DNA of 64,000 nt from a virus (taxonomy: Duplodnaviria > Heunggongvirae > Uroviricota > Caudoviricetes): positions 24,263 to 88,262 of the IMG/VR virus record IMGVR_UViG_3300045988_009865; one strand, written 5' to 3'. Below are positions 11,867 to 55,362 of the stretch, one piece after another. The notes beneath the pieces were generated by a model. The model was not told the origin of the DNA, did no database searches, and saw only the letters and a program-made list of their open reading frames with translations. Both the position numbers and the translations under genes were made by a program. Positions within the stretch are counted from its first letter, which is position 1, and each line of letters starts with the position of its first letter.

Positions 11867-12196
11867 TTAATCTGCCAACCTTAAATTGAAATTAACACCA
11901 AATTTTTCGCATACTTCCAACATAAACTCAAGAGAGACATTACCAGTGAGATTAATTATGTTGGATACACGAGCCTGAGAGATACCACAAATTTTAGCAA
12001 CTTGCTCTTGAGAAAGACCTCTGGATTTAATCTCTCTCTTAAAACGATGTGCAACGAAGTCTCTCATTTCGTCTACATCCATTGGACAAACATAACTCTC
12101 CATTTCAGCCTCTCTGTCAGCCTCCCAATCATCTTGTGGAGCATAAGGGTCAAAAACCTCATTCATCTTTCTTCTTCCGTTTACGTGAAGTGTCAA
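11867..12196 (-). CDS. helix-turn-helix DNA-binding protein
   Basis: 109 aa; LSQEQVAKICGISQARVSNI resembles XRE-type HTH. Confidence 0.5.
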   Translation of the reverse strand: MTLHVNGRRKMNEVFDPYAPQDDWEADREAEMESYVCPMDVDEMRDFVAHRFKREIKSRGLSQEQVAKICGISQARVSNIINLTGNVSLEFMLEVCEKFGVNFNLRLAD

Positions 12197-25726: not shown

Positions 25727-26773
25727 ATGGAGAAGTACACATTAAAAAAACTTCCCGATTCAGTTACACATGTCTTTATTGACTCTGATAGTATTGCCTA
25801 TAAAGGTGCTTGTGTAGTTGAGAAAGCAAAATATAAATATGTCAATAAACTCACAGCAGAAGAATCTGAACCATTTGATAATGCAAAAGATGCTGCAAGA
25901 TGGTTAGCAGACCAGAGAATCCTTGTAGAAGAGCTTGGCCTAGCATTTGATGAAGATGAATGGGACAGACAGACTTGGAAAGAAGCTAAGAGTGAAAAAG
26001 AAGCTATCATGGCTACTCAGCAGGTTCTTCAGGAATGGCTTAAGGTTGTTGGTAAAGAAAGAACTTGGGTAGGTTACTTAACAGAGAAGGGTGTACATAA
26101 ACATAAAGACGTTAAAGGTCTTGAGCACCAATATCAAGGTAACCGTAAAGATGCTGTCACACCAACACACTTAGTTGCTTGTCGTGAATATCTTTTATCC
26201 AGACCAGAGTTCAAACTCTTAAGGGGCGGCTTCGAAGCCGATTCAATTGTAATTGCTAAAGCTGAAAAGATGGGTAAGAAAGCTGCTCTTATGAGTATTG
26301 ACAAAGACCTTCGACAAGCTGAAGGGACTTATTGTATTGATATGACTTATGAAAAGTCACCACTAATTTTTATTGCTGATAATAACGTTGGTAATATCTG
26401 GGATTGTCCTATTAAATCAAAACCAAAAGCTGCAAAAACAGTTGGCGTAGGTTTTAAATTTTTGTGTTATCAGGCTGTTGCTGGAGATAATGCAGACAAC
26501 TACTTCGGCCTTAAAGGTGCTGGAAAAGTAGCTGTGATGAATGCTTTAGATGGTAAAGAGACTTATAAAGAATGTCTTGATGCTATCTATGAACTCTATG
26601 CTAAAAAAGACTCTTATACCTATGTGTCATGGGATGGACAGACTGTCACAAAGACACCATTAGAGTTAATGGAACAACATTTCTTCCTAGCTTATCAAGA
26701 GCGAAATAAATCAGATATTTTTTCATTTGAAAAGTATGGTTGGACTCCAAATGTTGACTCAGCAGACACTTAA
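25727..26773 (+). CDS. 5'-3' exonuclease / flap endonuclease (RNase H-like)
   Basis: 348 aa; SIDKDLRQ (GDKD..Q-type) motif and FGLKGAGKVAV H3TH-like motif. Confidence 0.55.
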   Translation: MEKYTLKKLPDSVTHVFIDSDSIAYKGACVVEKAKYKYVNKLTAEESEPFDNAKDAARWLADQRILVEELGLAFDEDEWDRQTWKEAKSEKEAIMATQQVLQEWLKVVGKERTWVGYLTEKGVHKHKDVKGLEHQYQGNRKDAVTPTHLVACREYLLSRPEFKLLRGGFEADSIVIAKAEKMGKKAALMSIDKDLRQAEGTYCIDMTYEKSPLIFIADNNVGNIWDCPIKSKPKAAKTVGVGFKFLCYQAVAGDNADNYFGLKGAGKVAVMNALDGKETYKECLDAIYELYAKKDSYTYVSWDGQTVTKTPLELMEQHFFLAYQERNKSDIFSFEKYGWTPNVDSADT

Positions 26774-27251
26774 AGAATATCTACACTATGACCCCGAAAC
26801 AGGGGTCTTTACGTGGATAAAGAAATCAGCTAACAGAACAGTTATAGGCTCCATTGCAGGTACACCACATAAGCGAGGTTATATTAGGATAAAAATTAAA
26901 AGAAAATTCTATATGGCTCATGATTTAGCAATCCTGTACACAGACGGTTTCCTACCTAACAGAGTAGACCATCGCAACGGTATTACGAATGATAATCGTA
27001 GATTAAATCTAAGGGTTTGCACACAAGCTGAAAACTCTTGGAATAGAAGAACACACTCCAACAACACATCTGGAGTTAAGGGTGTATCTTTCTATAAGGC
27101 TAACCAAAAATGGAAGGCCAGAGTTATGGCACACGGGGTATCTCACTTTCTGGGGTATTTTGACAGTATTGAAGATGCCAAAGATGCAGTTACAAAGAAA
27201 AGAGAAGAACTACATAAAGAGTTTTCAAATCACGGAGAAGCTTATGAATGA
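26727..27251 (+). CDS. HNH homing endonuclease with AP2-like DNA-binding domain
   Basis: HRNGITNDNRRLNLR..TQAEN HNH motif followed by GVSFYKANQKWKARV...GYFDSIEDAKDA; start uncertain (overlaps upstream gene). Confidence 0.7.
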   Translation: MKSMVGLQMLTQQTLKEYLHYDPETGVFTWIKKSANRTVIGSIAGTPHKRGYIRIKIKRKFYMAHDLAILYTDGFLPNRVDHRNGITNDNRRLNLRVCTQAENSWNRRTHSNNTSGVKGVSFYKANQKWKARVMAHGVSHFLGYFDSIEDAKDAVTKKREELHKEFSNHGEAYE

Positions 27252-27745
27252 AGATTAAAGGATTTGGCAATTGTCCTACCTATGGTCATTGGGTATCTTT
27301 ATGTGGGGAAGTTGACCCCACTAAACATTTTGGTTTTGTCTATTTAGTATACTGTAAGAAAACCGGACAATATTATATTGGAAAGAAACAGCTTAATAGC
27401 GTGACCAAAAGAAAAGTTGCTGGCAAGACTCGGAAGAAGGTAGTCACTAAGGAGAGTGATTGGATGACTTATGAGACTTCTTCTGAGTATATTAAAAAAG
27501 ATATTGAGAGCTTTGGAAAAGAATTTTTTGACTTTTACATTATCCAAACCTACTACACAAAAGGTGGTCTAGTTTATGGTGAAGCAAACCTCCAACATAA
27601 ATTCGATGTAATGACAAAAAGGATTGACTCTAAGCTCAGACTCTTCTACAATGCCAACATTGCAGCAATTAAGTTTATCACTAAAGAAACTTATGAAGAT
27701 GCTGAAAAAAGAATCCATAAGGTAATGAAAGCAAACTGTGCTTGA
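27248..27745 (+). CDS. GIY-YIG-like endonuclease domain protein
   Basis: GFVYLVYCKKTGQYYIGKK matches a GIY-(10)-YIG motif. Confidence 0.45.
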   Translation: MKIKGFGNCPTYGHWVSLCGEVDPTKHFGFVYLVYCKKTGQYYIGKKQLNSVTKRKVAGKTRKKVVTKESDWMTYETSSEYIKKDIESFGKEFFDFYIIQTYYTKGGLVYGEANLQHKFDVMTKRIDSKLRLFYNANIAAIKFITKETYEDAEKRIHKVMKANCA

Positions 27746-48830: not shown

Positions 48831-49038
48831 AAAGACCCGCAAGATTGTACGTTCAGCAGTATTCATAGGGAGAGATGAAGTCGTCCCGTTTGCAGGGGAA
48901 GATGTACTAACTTATAAGAAGGGTTTAAAACGTAAATTCAGTGACCGTTTACGCGGCTTCATCTCTGAACCATTAGAAGATTTCAAAAGTCGCTGTGGCG
49001 AAGGCATCATCATTCAAGAGGCAATTATTCATGGCTGA
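48805..49038 (+). CDS. hypothetical protein
   Basis: 77 aa. Confidence 0.3.
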   Translation: MKVILARDKKTRKIVRSAVFIGRDEVVPFAGEDVLTYKKGLKRKFSDRLRGFISEPLEDFKSRCGEGIIIQEAIIHG

Positions 49039-49231
49039 TTTCTGCAAAGATTGTGCTATCGAAATGTTTGGACGTGATACAGGTGACTTAAAAGGTCTTA
49101 TCACTGAAGATGACTTTAAAGCTGGCTATGCAATGCCAGTAATCTGTGAAGGTTGTGGATGTATCTGGGTAGACCACGAAGGACAACGTGTAAAACCTTC
49201 AGAAGATAAAGAATCTTGGGAGAGATGCTAA
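48995..49231 (+). CDS. small Cys-rich protein
   Basis: 78 aa; CKDC ... CEGCGC. Confidence 0.3.
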   Translation: MAKASSFKRQLFMADFCKDCAIEMFGRDTGDLKGLITEDDFKAGYAMPVICEGCGCIWVDHEGQRVKPSEDKESWERC

Positions 49232-50017
49232 ATGGGTATTGTAAAAATCATCAATGGGGATATCTTCTCCGCATTTGATAAAGGTAAGTTTGATATTATT
49301 GGTCACGGTTGCAACTGTATGAATTTAATGGGTGCAGGTATCGCTGACAAGATTTCTAAACTTTACCCAAAAGCATATGAGACTGATACAGAAGTCTATC
49401 TGTATGCAGGTGGTATAGGTCACAAACCCTGTGAAAATTTACTAGGCAATTTCTCTGTAGCACGTTTAGAACAAGGCCGTATAGCTAACCTTTACACTCA
49501 GCTTAAGACTGGTAAAGATGCCCGATACAGTGCTTTAGAGTCATCTTTGAAACAACTTAACAGATACTGTGAAGTCAATCAGTTGAAGAAAGTTGGGTTA
49601 CCTATGATTGGTGCAGGTATCGGTGGACTAGACTCTCAAGCCGTCACAGTCATCATTAATCAGGTGATGAAGAGTGTAGATGTGTATCTGTATGTCTATG
49701 AAGGAGAGATGTACCACAAGTTACGCTCAGGTTGGAAGAACTACTGTGAACCAGAATACTTTGCAGGTGTAGTAGTGTTCACTGATGATACAGTTACCCT
49801 CTTCAGACGAAGAAAAGGCAAGATACATCAAAGTAACCCTCCGGTTGAAAAGATGTCTCTAAGTAACGCTCTAGTTACCCACCTGTCGAAGAGCAATCAC
49901 AGGATTGCAGTAACATTTGGCAGTGATGCAGATACATATATCTATGCAAGAACTGATGAGGATGTTGAGGAAATTTTCTCTTCACCGGAAGTTACCTTCT
50001 TAGACGCAAAGAACTAA
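49232..50017 (+). CDS. macro-domain (ADP-ribose binding/processing) protein
   Basis: 261 aa; N-terminal IINGDIFSA...DIIGHGCNCMNLMGAGIA resembles the macrodomain GDI...N.AN...G.G.A signature. Confidence 0.5.
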   Translation: MGIVKIINGDIFSAFDKGKFDIIGHGCNCMNLMGAGIADKISKLYPKAYETDTEVYLYAGGIGHKPCENLLGNFSVARLEQGRIANLYTQLKTGKDARYSALESSLKQLNRYCEVNQLKKVGLPMIGAGIGGLDSQAVTVIINQVMKSVDVYLYVYEGEMYHKLRSGWKNYCEPEYFAGVVVFTDDTVTLFRRRKGKIHQSNPPVEKMSLSNALVTHLSKSNHRIAVTFGSDADTYIYARTDEDVEEIFSSPEVTFLDAKN

Positions 50018-50047
50018 GAAACTTTGTAGAATATTCACAATAGACTA

Positions 50048-50091
50048 AGCCTTTCTTATCTGGTAAATTTTTCAGGTAAGGAGGGCTTTTT
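50048..50091 (+). terminator. possible intrinsic terminator
   Basis: agcctttctta / taaggagggct stem (two G-U pairs) with long loop, then ttttt. Confidence 0.35.
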
Positions 50092-50267
50092 CATTTTAGG
50101 ATTGTGCAGGTAGAGTTCTGTAGAGAAATCTGTAGAGAAAATTTTGAACTCCAAAGAGAAAATTCATTTTCAAACTGTGCAGGTAATCTCCAAAGAGCTT
50201 TTTCATTTTCAAAACGTGCAGACCCCGCTCAGGTCGGGCAAGAAAAATCATTTTAGAATTGTGCAGG
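50091..50267. repeat. four direct repeats of about 20-35 bp (core tcatttt..a...tgcagg)
   Basis: Copies at 50091, 50164, 50203, 50248; also ctgtagagaaa x2 and ctccaaagag x2. Confidence 0.6.
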
Positions 50268-50446
50268 TAGGGTGGTGCAAGTGGGAATGTCGCCATTTCT
50301 CACAAGGCTACCACATATGAAAAGAAAAGTCAACAGAAAAATTTGTAGCGGATTGAAAAATAATTCTTGATTGTAGTTCTGTTTTGTGGTAGTCGCGTGC
50401 ACCCGTTTCATTACAGTTTTTTGCAAAAATATTTTTAAAATTCCTA

Positions 50447-50475
50447 TTGACTCTTTGAGTATGGTTATCTAATAT
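50447..50475 (+). promoter_or_regulatory. sigma70-like promoter (TTGACT-17-TAATAT) at head of small-gene array
   Basis: -35 50447-50452, -10 50470-50475. Confidence 0.55.
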
Positions 50476-50523
50476 TTGCATCAGACGGGCAATCAAGCCC
50501 ACTTCCTAAACTGGAGAATCAAA

Positions 50524-50730
50524 ATGCTTTACAGTCGTGAATTGATGGTTACAACTAACGTTAACACAAAGGTAAAACGTTTTTATATGCAAGTGTGCGG
50601 CGCATGGCGTAGAATATCAGAAGCTGACTATTGCAACTATGTAGAAACGGCTATCAATTCTAATTGCTACCTTACAATAAACACTAAGAAGTTTACAAGA
50701 CAGACAGCAATTTACTACTACGATAAATAA
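50524..50730 (+). CDS. small hypothetical protein (array gene 1)
   Basis: ATG 50524 after ctggagaatcaaa RBS; ORF-track start 50476 lies inside the promoter. Confidence 0.45.
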   Translation: MLYSRELMVTTNVNTKVKRFYMQVCGAWRRISEADYCNYVETAINSNCYLTINTKKFTRQTAIYYYDK

Positions 50731-50737
50731 AAAGTAC

Positions 50738-50766
50738 TTTACAAGGGGCTTAAAAGCTGGTATCTT
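50738..50766 (+). promoter_or_regulatory. type-1 cassette promoter candidate (TTTACA-17-TATCTT) with hairpin in spacer
   Basis: Conserved element agtacTTTACAaggggcttaa...ttaagcccc...ccttaaactaggagattcaaaaATG. Confidence 0.4.
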
Positions 50767-50820
50767 AAGCCCCAGATAAAGAGCTTTACTAAATTAACCC
50801 TTAAACTAGGAGATTCAAAA

Positions 50821-51201
50821 ATGGCTTATCGTGCACCGAAATTCATCAACAAAGACAACTTCCGCAACGCACTGGAGAAGTCACTTGATGAAAAATTTAA
50901 CGGCAAATTGATTGTTGTTCACGCATTCAATTTTAAGTATGATATTAACGGGAATAAAATCAACCATTACACGGCAACCATGTTAGATGGTACACTATCA
51001 AGTGAAAAAGCTGTACTGAATGCACTTGCAGGACGTGGTAAAAACCTGATAAGATGCGATAAGAGACGTTATCAGGGTGGCGCATATGGTTATGATGATG
51101 CTGTTTATCATCTTGAAAATATGGGCTATTCAGTGGAAAAAGCTGGAGTGTCTCAAATAATCGGCAGTGACGGCTATGTGACAATTTTCAAAATTAACTA
51201 A
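50821..51201 (+). CDS. small hypothetical protein (array gene 2)
   Basis: 126 aa; conserved leader and RBS. Confidence 0.5.
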   Translation: MAYRAPKFINKDNFRNALEKSLDEKFNGKLIVVHAFNFKYDINGNKINHYTATMLDGTLSSEKAVLNALAGRGKNLIRCDKRRYQGGAYGYDDAVYHLENMGYSVEKAGVSQIIGSDGYVTIFKIN

Positions 51202-51209
51202 TAAAGTAC

Positions 51210-51238
51210 TTTACAGGGGGCTTATAGTTCGATAAAGT
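51210..51238 (+). promoter_or_regulatory. type-1 cassette promoter candidate (TTTACA-17-TAAAGT)
   Basis: Same cassette; stem carries compensatory changes. Confidence 0.4.
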
Positions 51239-51289
51239 AAGCCCCAGATAAAGAGCTTTACCACTAAATCCTAAATTGGAGATTCAAAA

Positions 51290-51580
51290 ATGGCTATTAT
51301 TAAAAACGTTGTAATTCCTGCAAAAACTCGTGATGACGCTCGCATCATGGCGAAAAAGTTAGGCGGGAAAGTGGTTGACAACGGAAAACAAACTGCTGTA
51401 AGGTGGAACGTGAAGGCGGATAAACAAATGAATTTAAAAAATTCACCAATAAACCTTTTTACATGTGTAAACACTATCGGGAAAACGAATGTATACACTA
51501 AAAAGGCATATATCAGACGCATCGCCATGACGTCACCTATTCGTACAATGAGAAGTCATGCAAAGCTGAAAATTAAGTAA
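51290..51580 (+). CDS. small hypothetical protein (array gene 3)
   Basis: 96 aa; conserved leader. Confidence 0.5.
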   Translation: MAIIKNVVIPAKTRDDARIMAKKLGGKVVDNGKQTAVRWNVKADKQMNLKNSPINLFTCVNTIGKTNVYTKKAYIRRIAMTSPIRTMRSHAKLKIK

Positions 51581-51588
51581 TAGAGTAC

Positions 51589-51617
51589 TTTACAGGGGGC
51601 TTAAAAGCTGATATCTT
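51589..51617 (+). promoter_or_regulatory. type-1 cassette promoter candidate (TTTACA-17-TATCTT)
   Basis: Same cassette. Confidence 0.4.
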
Positions 51618-51670
51618 AAGCCCCAGATAAAGAGCTTTACCACTCAATCCTTAAACTAGGAGATTCAAAA

Positions 51671-52183
51671 ATGAAAACTGTAGACGCTACCTTTGAAGTT
51701 GTAAAAGAAAAATTTTCCATCATTTACGAAGCTGTCAATTGCTACGAAGCAAGCCATAATCTTGATAATTGGAAGTTTACAGATGACCATCAAGGTGGTG
51801 TGACTATTAAAAACCCCAACTGTCAGCGTAATGGATTTAAATATGCAATTCCTTTACATTACAGCCTTAAACAGCTTTCAATTGACTATGCAAAACAAGG
51901 CCGGGAAAATCCATCGAAAGAGGCTTACATCAGCTTACAGAAAGAACTAGAAAGAGATTTAGAGGCTTCAGAATATAACATCGCCGCGAAAGTTGTAGAT
52001 GCAAACGGTAGCACGGTTTTAGAAAGTTTTTATATTGGTTATGCTTTCGATTGGTGCTACAGTGACGGCGATGATTTAGATGACAGACTAAAAGAGGAAG
52101 TGAACAACGCAGACGCAGAATCTGAAGTATTAGAACGCTTGGAAGCATTAAAAGATTCAGTGATGAATATCTTTAAGAACTAA
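51671..52183 (+). CDS. small acidic hypothetical protein (array gene 4)
   Basis: 170 aa; D/E-rich. Confidence 0.5.
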   Translation: MKTVDATFEVVKEKFSIIYEAVNCYEASHNLDNWKFTDDHQGGVTIKNPNCQRNGFKYAIPLHYSLKQLSIDYAKQGRENPSKEAYISLQKELERDLEASEYNIAAKVVDANGSTVLESFYIGYAFDWCYSDGDDLDDRLKEEVNNADAESEVLERLEALKDSVMNIFKN

Positions 52184-52897: not shown

Positions 52898-52922
52898 TTT
52901 TAGTTTTAAAAACAAGTAAATT
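52894..52922 (+). promoter_or_regulatory. type-2 cassette promoter (TTGATT-17-TAAATT)
   Basis: Followed by conserved leader actaatcaacggggagg...ccttcccc...aactaggagattc. Confidence 0.5.
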
Positions 52923-52987
52923 ACTAATCAACGGGGAGGGAATGACCTTCCCCACTAAGTAAAGTCCTTAAACTAGGAGATTCAAAA

Positions 52988-53260
52988 ATGTACACTACTA
53001 ACAACGGTCGCACCTTAAACGTAACCCTACGCCACTATGTAAACGGTGTAATGCACTTCGAGGATTTACAAGCTGAACAGCACATTTTGGATTGGCAACT
53101 TGCAGGATTCCAAAAAACTGCTACCGGATACGGGAAAAAGATTCCAACCAGTTGGAAAGTATACTACGAAGGACGTTTGCGCAGAATTTATCAGGATGTG
53201 CAAAGCAATAGCGCATCGAGTTACATTATAGTAAAAGGTAAAAAGCTGCATTTAGCATAA
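52988..53260 (+). CDS. small hypothetical protein (array gene 7)
   Basis: 90 aa. Confidence 0.45.
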   Translation: MYTTNNGRTLNVTLRHYVNGVMHFEDLQAEQHILDWQLAGFQKTATGYGKKIPTSWKVYYEGRLRRIYQDVQSNSASSYIIVKGKKLHLA

Positions 53261-53758: not shown

Positions 53759-53787
53759 TTGACACTGATTTTTAGATAGATTAAATT
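53759..53787 (+). promoter_or_regulatory. type-2 cassette promoter (TTGACA-17-TAAATT)
   Basis: -35 53759-53764, -10 53782-53787. Confidence 0.55.
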
Positions 53788-53851
53788 ACTCATCAACGGG
53801 GAGGCAATAACCTCCCTACTAAATAAAGTCCTTAAACTAGGAGATTCTAAA

Positions 53852-54049
53852 ATGGCTATTATTAACGGCTTAACCATTGAAACAACACACATCAAAGATA
53901 TCAAAGTTGGTGATGTAGTCCTTTCCCACGGCGTAGAAAAAACTGTCACTGCAAAGGATATCAAAGAGGATTCTTTCATGGGTAGAACTCTCTTCGGTGA
54001 TTCTTATTGCTTAGGTTATCTTGCAGTTTTAAAAGTTGTCAAAAATTAA
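53852..54049 (+). CDS. small hypothetical protein (array gene 9)
   Basis: 65 aa. Confidence 0.4.
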   Translation: MAIINGLTIETTHIKDIKVGDVVLSHGVEKTVTAKDIKEDSFMGRTLFGDSYCLGYLAVLKVVKN

Positions 54050-55336: not shown

Positions 55337-55362
55337 ACAAGCCGGATAAAAATCTGTAAATT
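55334..55362 (+). promoter_or_regulatory. type-2 cassette promoter (TAGACA-17-TAAATT)
   Basis: Followed by leader with gggagg/cctccc hairpin. Confidence 0.5.

Follow-up and report, generated by a model that had tools for sequence, protein, structure and literature searches.

A conserved array of asymmetric direct repeats, probably a protein-binding DNA element, follows the macro-domain gene of Felix O1-like phages

The four direct repeats that begin at positions 50091, 50164, 50203 and 50248 of the phage DNA analyzed here (a stretch of 64,000 nucleotides, referred to as the window) are probably a cis-acting DNA element, an array of sites on which protein binds, and we give this reading a probability of roughly three in four. 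Their cores are under purifying selection. We are evenly divided over the narrower description suggested by their sequence, that of an iteron-like array of asymmetric, two-part binding sites recognized at the level of DNA. The source of the window is a Felixounavirus genome, since positions 49000-52000 match more than 100 Felix O1-like phages infecting E. coli and Salmonella at 91-98% identity, the closest relative in that segment being Escherichia phage vB_EcoM_CRP22 (97.9%). Felixounaviruses are myoviruses with genomes of about 87 kb. The repeats lie in a 507-bp gap without genes (50018-50524) that has a macro-domain gene on its left and a cluster of small genes on its right, and the features of the locus are as follows.

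49232-50017, plus strand: macro-domain gene (261 aa; Pfam Macro), immediately upstream of the array.
50047-50088, plus strand: intrinsic terminator that ends the macro-gene operon, with a stem of 17 pairs, an 8-base loop and a T-run.
50091-50108, plus strand: repeat copy 1, TCATTTTAGGATTGTGCAG, core TCATTTTAGGATTGTGCA (direct reading and motif scan).
50118-50140, plus strand: two CTGTAGAGAAA units in tandem, within the long spacer that separates copies 1 and 2.
50164-50181, plus strand: repeat copy 2, TCATTTTCAAACTGTGCAG, core TCATTTTCAAACTGTGCA (direct reading and motif scan).
50203-50220, plus strand: repeat copy 3, TCATTTTCAAAACGTGCAG, core TCATTTTCAAAACGTGCA (direct reading and motif scan).
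50248-50265, plus strand: repeat copy 4, TCATTTTAGAATTGTGCAG, core TCATTTTAGAATTGTGCA (direct reading and motif scan).
50267-50310, no strand: G+C-rich block immediately 3' of copy 4, with AT down to 0.47.
50408-50425, plus strand: degenerate fifth match, TCATTACAGTTTTTTGCA, with 2 mismatches, just 5' of the -35.
50425-50446, no strand: least stable and most A+T-rich part of the gap, abutting the -35.
50447-50475, plus strand: sigma-70-type promoter TTGACT-17-TAATAT (promoter scan), the first of the small-gene cluster.
50524-50730, plus strand: first small gene (68 aa, no family), which differs among relatives.

An earlier, sequence-only reading of this DNA had claimed four direct repeats at these positions, and direct reading recovered four exact copies of TCATTTTNNNANNGTGCAG (TCATTTT-N3-A-N2-GTGCAG), all on the plus strand, with start-to-start distances of 73, 39 and 45 bases. 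When up to two mismatches were allowed across the 64-kb window, six matches were found, namely the four exact copies and two elsewhere with 2 mismatches; 100 shuffled controls averaged 1.02 matches, with at most 4, and none reached 6. The extended identity claimed for the middle two copies was also borne out, as copies 2 and 3 share the longer unit CTCCAAAGAG...TCATTTTCAAA..GTGCAG. Copy 4, together with the upstream GGTCGGGCAAGAAAAA, is nearly identical to copy 3 of Erwinia phages, and positions 456-490 of L007 match window positions 50231-50265 at 91%. The only exact copies of CTGTAGAGAAA in the window are the two at 50118-50140; the motif also occurs 3' of the array in L141, a distant metagenomic relative, and a related motif is found in phage Mordin. 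Bas63 (JohannRWettstein) has a complete genome of 87,100 bp, in which the four array copies are the sole matches to TCATTTTNNNANNGTGCAG with 0 or 1 mismatch, and the 29 matches with 2 mismatches fall inside the range of 50 shuffles (mean 17, maximum 29). A motif confined to a single locus in this way is unlike that of a general regulator or a special RNA polymerase, which would be expected at many genes.

A profile built from 80 distinct units, taken from the window and related loci, resolves each unit into two nearly invariant blocks, TCATTT and GTGCA (1.7-2.0 bits per position), separated by seven A/T-rich positions of 0.6-1.4 bits. Most flanking positions are near 0 bits, the exceptions being a G six bases upstream and a TA soon after GTGCA. 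Because neither TCATTT nor GTGCA is the reverse complement of the other, the unit is asymmetric, and its orientation is uniform across copies. Dyad symmetry within the units was likewise absent, with arms inside one unit in 0 of the 15 inverted-repeat pairs in 49500-51000. The four 18-nt cores thus have the form expected of iterons, which number at least three, run in a single orientation as direct repeats about 17-22 bp long and occur nowhere else in their replicon. We infer that the repeats would be bound by a putative sequence-specific DNA-binding protein, probably encoded by the phage itself, with one molecule per site. Each bound molecule would contact two successive major grooves, and a multi-protein complex would assemble on the array. 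The array sits where little transcription would be expected, past the terminator that closes the long replication/metabolism operon and ahead of the first small-gene promoter. Helical phasing of the sites was considered and rejected: in Felixounavirus, copies 1, 2 and 4 are separated by 73 and 84 bp (7.0 and 8.0 turns), but the relationship fails in L141, Pectobacterium phage Arno18 and Kolesnikvirus, and copy-to-copy spacing across the lineages follows no constant number of helical turns.

Conservation within the genus sets the repeats apart from the surrounding DNA. Among 19 distinct Felixounavirus sequences, 91% of the core columns are invariant, compared with 90% of second and 60% of third codon positions in the adjacent gene, 76% of the rest of the array and 64% of the DNA 3' of the array. 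The same core, always in the same orientation and directly behind the macro gene, recurs in Mooglevirus (Mordin and Sf13; spacing 75/41/45), in Kolesnikvirus phages of Erwinia and Salmonella (spacing 37/37/39) and in phages of the finno/Si3 type, which have three copies (spacing 75/45). Two distant metagenomic relatives whose macro proteins are each 37% identical to that of the window have it as well: L141 has four copies spaced 91/35/45, and L035 has four copies by motif scan and a fifth, degenerate one by eye. Conservation in related phages, a check named in the sequence-only reading, was therefore found in Felixounavirus, Mooglevirus, Kolesnikvirus, L035 and L141. In blastn comparisons with Erwinia phage records, the array was the only part of the 507-bp gap that could be aligned.

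These observations bear on whether the repeats could be a functionless tandem duplication of the terminator tail that has persisted by chance, which we find scarcely credible. The left part of the unit, CTTTTTCATTT, does resemble terminator tails, and one related lineage (L140) lacks the array, but the core is as invariant as second codon positions whereas the flanking noncoding DNA drifts like third positions. The array has also been retained down to 37% macro-protein identity, including in L035, where the array region has no nucleotide match in the phage collection. The L140 macro protein has the same overall length and a C-terminal extension, yet no array stands behind its gene, so the element is not indispensable at this position. 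Neither a gap nor an array was found 3' of the macro gene in Pakpunavirus K8 or Proteus phage J3S.

Most lineages with an array share one order, in which the macro gene is followed by a terminator and then by three to five repeats. The first gap between copies is long and the next two are short in Felixounavirus, Mooglevirus, L141 and Arno18; the exceptions are Kolesnikvirus, with three short gaps, and L035, with a different arrangement. A 40-80 bp G+C-rich block lies 3' of the array in Felixounavirus, Mooglevirus, Kolesnikvirus and Arno18 (AT 0.38-0.47 at the equivalent position in Mooglevirus and Kolesnikvirus, with the stretch in Arno18 likewise 3' of its own array), and it is followed by a stretch of 80-88% A+T, a sigma-70-type promoter and small genes. 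Mordin and the Erwinia phage likewise have TTGACT together with a -10-like hexamer. The constant neighbor of the array is the upstream macro-domain gene, for which records often give the product as "phosphatase." The first downstream gene varies; it is absent in wV8, and Kolesnikvirus has another gene in its place. Several of the small genes downstream of the gap carry promoter- and terminator-like sequences of their own.

Arno18, a member of Ounavirinae, differs in the sequence of its repeats. It has four direct repeats of 41 nt, GTGTCACATTGCAAAACTCGTTGGAAAAAAGTGCTCTAGGT, at the same place with a spacing of 89/47/47, and only ...AAAAGTGC...TAGG is reminiscent of the other lineages. The sequence has been swapped while the number and layout have been kept, which fits a site that co-evolves with its own protein. 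This replacement also argues that the binder is phage-encoded, since a conserved host factor would be expected to fix the sequence; DnaA, IHF and Fis, which are conserved among Enterobacterales hosts, should hold a site of theirs constant. Beyond the phages, 72,556 plasmids and 5,426 E. coli genomes yielded no similar DNA, a tandem-pair pattern search of 185,579 bacterial genomes matched only unrelated regular tandem repeats, and a pattern scan of metagenomes returned only Ounavirinae contigs or unrelated regular tandem repeats. Several metagenome contigs stop 100-800 bp past the array, probably because a highly conserved block there meets strain-variable DNA.

Two open reading frames run across the repeats, one on the minus strand (50096-50296, 66 aa) and one on the plus strand (50144-50320, 58 aa). 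A protein-coding repeat was rejected on the basis of the periods seen in relatives (37, 41, 43, 47 and 91 bases), which break any frame, and GenBank records disagree at the array, with ORFs on differing strands or none. The frame-breaking spacing and the inconsistency of the recorded ORFs indicate that neither frame is a gene, in agreement with the suggestion of the sequence-only reading that the minus-strand ORFs predicted here are translated repeats.

The terminator just upstream raises the question of a role in RNA. Its columns in the alignment are 100% or nearly 100% conserved, and its T-run continues into repeat copy 1, an overlap that the earlier reader missed, as was the degenerate fifth match at 50408-50425. 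It corresponds to Felix O1 terminator t13 (-21.8 kcal/mol), the strongest among the entries compared from Table 2 of the Felix O1 genome paper (PMC3185647). Under an RNA-level role, the motifs would be carried by a small RNA or by the 3' untranslated part of transcripts that read through from the macro operon, and would bind or titrate an RNA-binding protein or another RNA. The T-run of copy 1 within the terminator would suit this, as would the ending of Felix O1 terminator t5 in the same CTTTTTCATTT (PMC3185647) and a plus-strand fold more stable than that of shuffled sequences (z -2.7). That stability, however, is due to the terminator hairpin alone, and the minus strand gave z -0.2. Searches of the entire window found no Rfam match at gathering thresholds and no tRNA (ARAGORN). 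Primary sequence is conserved in two blocks with no consistent pairing partner, and what precedes the array is a very strong terminator, not a promoter. We therefore regard an RNA-level role as very improbable. A promoter scan of both strands over 50018-50446 found no promoter-like site, and a cluster of sigma-70 promoters was rejected, there being no -35/-10 pair with 16-18 bp spacing inside the units. The position of the array between the terminator and the next promoter, with no internal promoter, favors action as DNA, and all lineages examined have the array placed likewise, between a terminator and the promoter that follows.

The sequence-only reading took the repeats to be an operator or iteron array controlling the switch into the small-gene array and placed them about 180-350 bp upstream of a TTGACT-17-TAATAT promoter at 50447. 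The promoter scan found that promoter, 181 bp after copy 4 and 356 bp from the start of copy 1, so that the stated distance holds. The iteron part of the proposal stands, as these are noncoding direct repeats of the iteron type; the part that found no support is a classical operator switching the small-gene array. The sites are 181-356 bp away, the intervening DNA is not conserved between genera, the units have no dyad, and the motif is absent at other promoters. A classical operator is unlikely. An operator of the adjacent promoter finds no support in the layout either: the sites neither overlap that promoter nor come within about 100 bp of it, and only a doubtful 2-mismatch match lies near the -35.

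A phage regulator acting at long range on the four sites, such as the Xre-type HTH protein at 11867-12196, is the chief rival explanation, if a doubtful one. By looping or spreading it would switch the 50447 promoter off or on, or it would reinforce the terminator or insulate it against read-through. The array lies exactly at the border of two transcription units, a promoter is found about 175-215 bp 3' of the array wherever the downstream promoter could be located, an HTH_3 protein is encoded in the window, and the weak fifth match at 50408-50425 beside the -35 could anchor a loop. Against this, the distance to the promoter and the lack of dyad symmetry count as they do for an operator, and the DNA between array and promoter varies between genera. 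The motif is missing from all other promoters of the genome, with no copy at 0 or 1 mismatch at the other small-gene-cluster promoters or in the rest of Bas63. The downstream gene is variable or missing, and Kolesnikvirus, L141 and Arno18 have not kept the overlap between the terminator and copy 1. The fifth match is also absent from the gaps of Mooglevirus and Kolesnikvirus. Felix O1 and Si3 have a 2-mismatch match, TCATTTCCCAACCTTACA, about 159 nt past the last copy, but its sequence differs from that of TCATTACAGTTTTTTGCA; the two correspond by position only, and the fifth match may be a product of chance.

Several candidate binders were compared with the conserved blocks. By eye, the Erwinia sequence CTATGCACA fits a DnaA box at 8 of 9 positions but the E. 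coli phage sequence ACCTGCACA at only 6 of 9. Sites for IHF, Fis, CRP, OmpR and PhoB and promoters for sigma-E, sigma-54 and sigma-32, also judged by eye, did not fit the conserved blocks. Copy 2 does contain a sigma-E-like GAACTC...TCAAA, but its spacer is 18 nt and the other copies lack it, and the MuA end-site consensus matches at 14 of 20 positions in copy 3 only, with a matching middle that is not conserved between copies. The C-terminal domain of the macro protein was rejected as the binder because L035 has an array and a 148-aa macro protein without the extension, while L140 has the extension and no array. The HTH protein at 11867-12196, which had been named as a candidate regulator, is of the Xre type (HTH_3), and nothing was found that links it to the array. 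Xre-type HTH proteins usually bind palindromes.

A search for initiators covered part of the proteome. PHROGs was searched with eight window proteins (seven larger ORFs near the polymerase and primase-helicase genes, and the HTH protein), and Pfam with 11 of about 100, that is, with these eight, the macro protein and the first two small genes. No match to Rep, O or DnaA-type initiator families was found among the 11. About two thirds of the genes in the Bas63 record are without functional annotation.

Our leading guess at a function, and a tentative one, is that the complex on the array marks a replication origin or a similar organizing site; long-range control comes close behind, and the remaining weight goes to other roles. 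In an origin, the iterons would be followed by the G+C-rich block, then by A+T-rich DNA that melts easily and by a strong promoter, the transcript of which could open or prime the DNA. In favor of this are the iterons, the fact that the array occurs once in the genome, the strong promoter, and blocks rich in G+C and in A+T close by. The A+T-rich stretch (AT 0.80-0.82, dG about -43 kcal per 40 bp) lies 125-160 bp 3' of the array and abuts the -35, so that it could equally be an UP element of the promoter. Mooglevirus and Kolesnikvirus are A+T-rich at the equivalent position, and in L035 a region of 85-88% A+T stands immediately 3' of the array. Several observations speak against an origin. No initiator was matched among the scanned proteins. 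The replisome is T7-like, with a Toprim plus DnaB-type primase-helicase resembling T7 gp4, and T7 replication starts from transcripts, without iterons. Cumulative GC skew turns at about 20 kb, in the divergent DNA-polymerase region, and at about 57 kb, not at 50 kb; phage GC skew follows transcription. Finally, the leftward fork from an origin at the array would run head-on into 30 kb of plus-strand genes. No mapped replication origin was found in the literature for Felix O1-like phages. It seems unlikely that the array is the loading site of a new, hitherto unrecognized phage initiator or organizer that co-evolves with its sites, although such co-evolution is what the Arno18 variant suggests.

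The position of the array in the genome also invites comparison with the genome ends. A terminal repeat had been suspected because the KhF1 record starts and ends in the gap and because of the ends of Erwinia phage BoyaciRG1. The KhF1 ends are redundant for about 370 bp over the array, in low-quality sequence with many Ns, and the identical ends of the BoyaciRG1 record (1232 bp) cover the array. The 581-bp identical ends of vB_EcoM_D4, which was analyzed with PhageTerm (PMC11737134), map to window positions 57303-57883, and terminal repeats of 608 bp and 581 bp are described for the Felix O1-like phages UAB_Phi87 (PMC4837284) and Pr103Blw (PMC8303462). The array as a terminal repeat or packaging site was consequently rejected, since the D4 ends map 7 kb away. 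The redundant ends of KhF1 and BoyaciRG1 look like assembly artifacts, because PhageTerm-analyzed Kolesnikvirus genomes have either a 439-bp repeat (SPARTY) or an internal array (Fifi318).

A related proposal makes the array a DNA-entry or genome-end site, either a pause or stop in stepwise injection as in T5 or an accessory packaging site, and we consider it quite improbable. The right-end 7.4 kb or so, comprising the small genes and the terminal repeat, would then enter and be expressed first. The array does mark the inner limit of the small-gene cluster; from it to the beginning of the terminal repeat is about 7.0 kb, and to the right genome end about 7.6 kb, or roughly 8-9% of the genome length. 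The arrays of L035 and L141 precede TTAACA/TGTTA clusters that resemble the YTGTTAR heptamers of the terminal repeat. The terminal repeat itself is nevertheless at 57303-57883, away from the array, and the redundant record ends at the array look artifactual. The distance is not conserved, being about 16 kb to the end in a PhageTerm-oriented Kolesnikvirus record (PMC11984208), and no report of stepwise injection was found for Felix O1-like phages.

We found no prior description of the array in the searchable literature. The repeat list of the Felix O1 genome paper, which starts at 24 bp, does not include it, and the same paper states that the temporal regulation of Felix O1 is unknown (PMC3185647). 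The DR features annotated in the wV8 record do not cover the array, no literature was found that pairs "iteron" with names from the Felix O1 group, and the passages searched in the Bas63 knockout and SUSP1 knockdown studies contain nothing on the gap. The array is of a familiar kind, a conserved direct-repeat array in a phage control region, and is a new and deeply conserved instance of it that lends itself to experiment. Felix O1-like phages are standard Salmonella typing phages that have also been suggested or employed for biocontrol, and Bas63 is on its way to becoming a laboratory model. As a unique element conserved like the second codon positions of the adjacent gene, the array is usable as bait for its putative binding protein and as a site to spare, or else to exploit, when Felix O1-like genomes are engineered. 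It also accounts for spurious "hypothetical protein" calls in many GenBank records. If it is a loading site for an initiator or organizer, it would be the first origin of replication, or else the first DNA-entry checkpoint of the T5 type, to be defined in the Felix O1 group, and an origin or entry checkpoint would open a so far unstudied biology of this group.

Among known systems, the injection-stop region of T5 is a repeat-rich noncoding region that bounds, on the inner side, a terminal block of small early genes amounting to about 8% of the genome. The array also borders a terminal small-gene block from the inside, but the T5 region is contained in a 10-kb terminal repeat and entry in two steps has been demonstrated there, whereas the array is outside the 581-bp repeat. 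The operators of lambda (OR/OL), Mu (O1-O3) and P1 (C1) resemble the array in having multiple copies of one motif in an intergenic control region; they differ in that they overlap or adjoin promoters and are palindromic (lambda) or found at many promoters (P1), while the sites of the array lie 181-356 bp upstream, are asymmetric and occupy one locus only.

A likeness in form is also seen with lambda ori, with its four O-protein sites, and with the plasmid iterons of R6K gamma, RK2 oriV, F and pPS10, which have 3-7 direct repeats of 17-22 bp in one orientation, two-block asymmetric sites that suit a monomer with two DNA-reading domains, and A+T-rich and G+C-rich blocks close by, and which diverge together with their cognate protein (see also PMC4980987). 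Their repeats are regular at about 22 bp and stand beside or inside the initiator gene, whereas the Felix O1-like arrays are irregular at 37-91 bp and have no recognizable initiator gene and no nucleotide similarity to plasmids. The closest parallel for an origin-type role comes from another virulent myovirus: T4 oriE has a cluster of short direct repeats in an early region, syntenic in relatives, to which no initiator has been assigned, and these iterons are reviewed as having no established link to origin activity (PMC3016281). The T4 repeats are 12 nt long, evenly spaced and located in a mapped origin, whereas the Felixounavirus units are about 18-20 nt long, built of two parts and unevenly spaced at 73/39/45.

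A short motif and a related variant accompany the four-copy array of direct repeats, and a degenerate match to the repeat core lies near the downstream promoter.

50118-50140: two tandem units of CTGTAGAGAAA, between array copies 1 and 2
50342-50352: TTTGTAGCGGA, related to CTGTAGAGAAA, downstream of the array
50408-50425: TCATTACAGTTTTTTGCA, a fifth core match with two mismatches, just upstream of the -35

Exact copies of CTGTAGAGAAA are confined, within the window, to the tandem pair. The motif also follows the array of the distant metagenomic relative L141, and a related version occurs in the Mooglevirus Mordin, so that the array element may include a second conserved short motif. The fifth core match may reflect chance or a promoter-proximal site. 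Felix O1 and Si3 carry a two-mismatch core match about 159 nt past the last array copy, with a different sequence (TCATTTCCCAACCTTACA), and none was found in the other genera. In Pectobacterium phage Arno18, the place of the array behind the macro gene is taken by repeats whose sequence is unlike that of the window array.

Arno18 (L137) 2492-2715: four 41-nt direct repeats, GTGTCACATTGCAAAACTCGTTGGAAAAAAGTGCTCTAGGT, spaced 89/47/47

The orf14 annotated within these repeats is probably spurious.

Further downstream, heptamers of the form YTGTTAR are concentrated in and near the direct terminal repeat of felixounaviruses.

57303-57883: direct terminal repeat, 581 bp
58047-58398: second YTGTTAR cluster, just outside the terminal repeat

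The terminal repeat contains 20 YTGTTAR heptamers, against a background of about 1 per 900 bp; many are spaced 10-11 bp apart (e.g., 57366/57377/57388/57399), and inverted copies lie at its left edge. The heptamers may act as packaging or end-recognition sites. Similar TTAACA/TGTTA clusters directly follow the array in two distant metagenomic relatives, L035 (1-1200, minus strand) and L141 (4140-4260). The L035 cluster is a 170-bp stretch with an A+T content of up to 85-88%, and the array there lies at most about 800 bp from the contig end. In these two lineages, the array may adjoin the genome terminus.

Several public records (among them KT184313.1 [L003/L006] and OR125561.1 [L007/L008]) and metagenome contigs (those behind L025, L032, L037, and L051) start or stop at or just past the array. 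Record ends of Felix O1-like phages are an unreliable guide to physical termini. The KhF1 record has an overlap of about 370 bp between its ends, with Ns, and that of Erwinia phage BoyaciRG1 has identical ends of 1232 bp. In the RefSeq record of UAB_Phi87 (NC_027360.1 [L009/L010]), the two ends are identical over 542 bp and lie in the tRNA region, at odds both with the published 608-bp terminal repeat of this phage (PMC4837284) and with the position of the repeat in vB_EcoM_D4.

Elsewhere in the window, two adjacent homing-endonuclease-like genes (26727-27745) lie within the replication gene block.

26727-27251: HNH_3 homing-endonuclease-like gene
27248-27745: SegE-type GIY-YIG homing-endonuclease-like gene

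The small-gene cluster is interspersed with repeated modules of about 75 bp that are 84-96% alike.

50731-50787: module, with a hairpin adjoining a promoter-like site
52915-52990: module
53782-53856: module
55348-55430: module
55918-55992: module
56517-56580: module

These modules are the counterparts of the DR features in the wV8 record and of the direct repeats, 57 bp and 39 bp long, that have been described in Felix O1.
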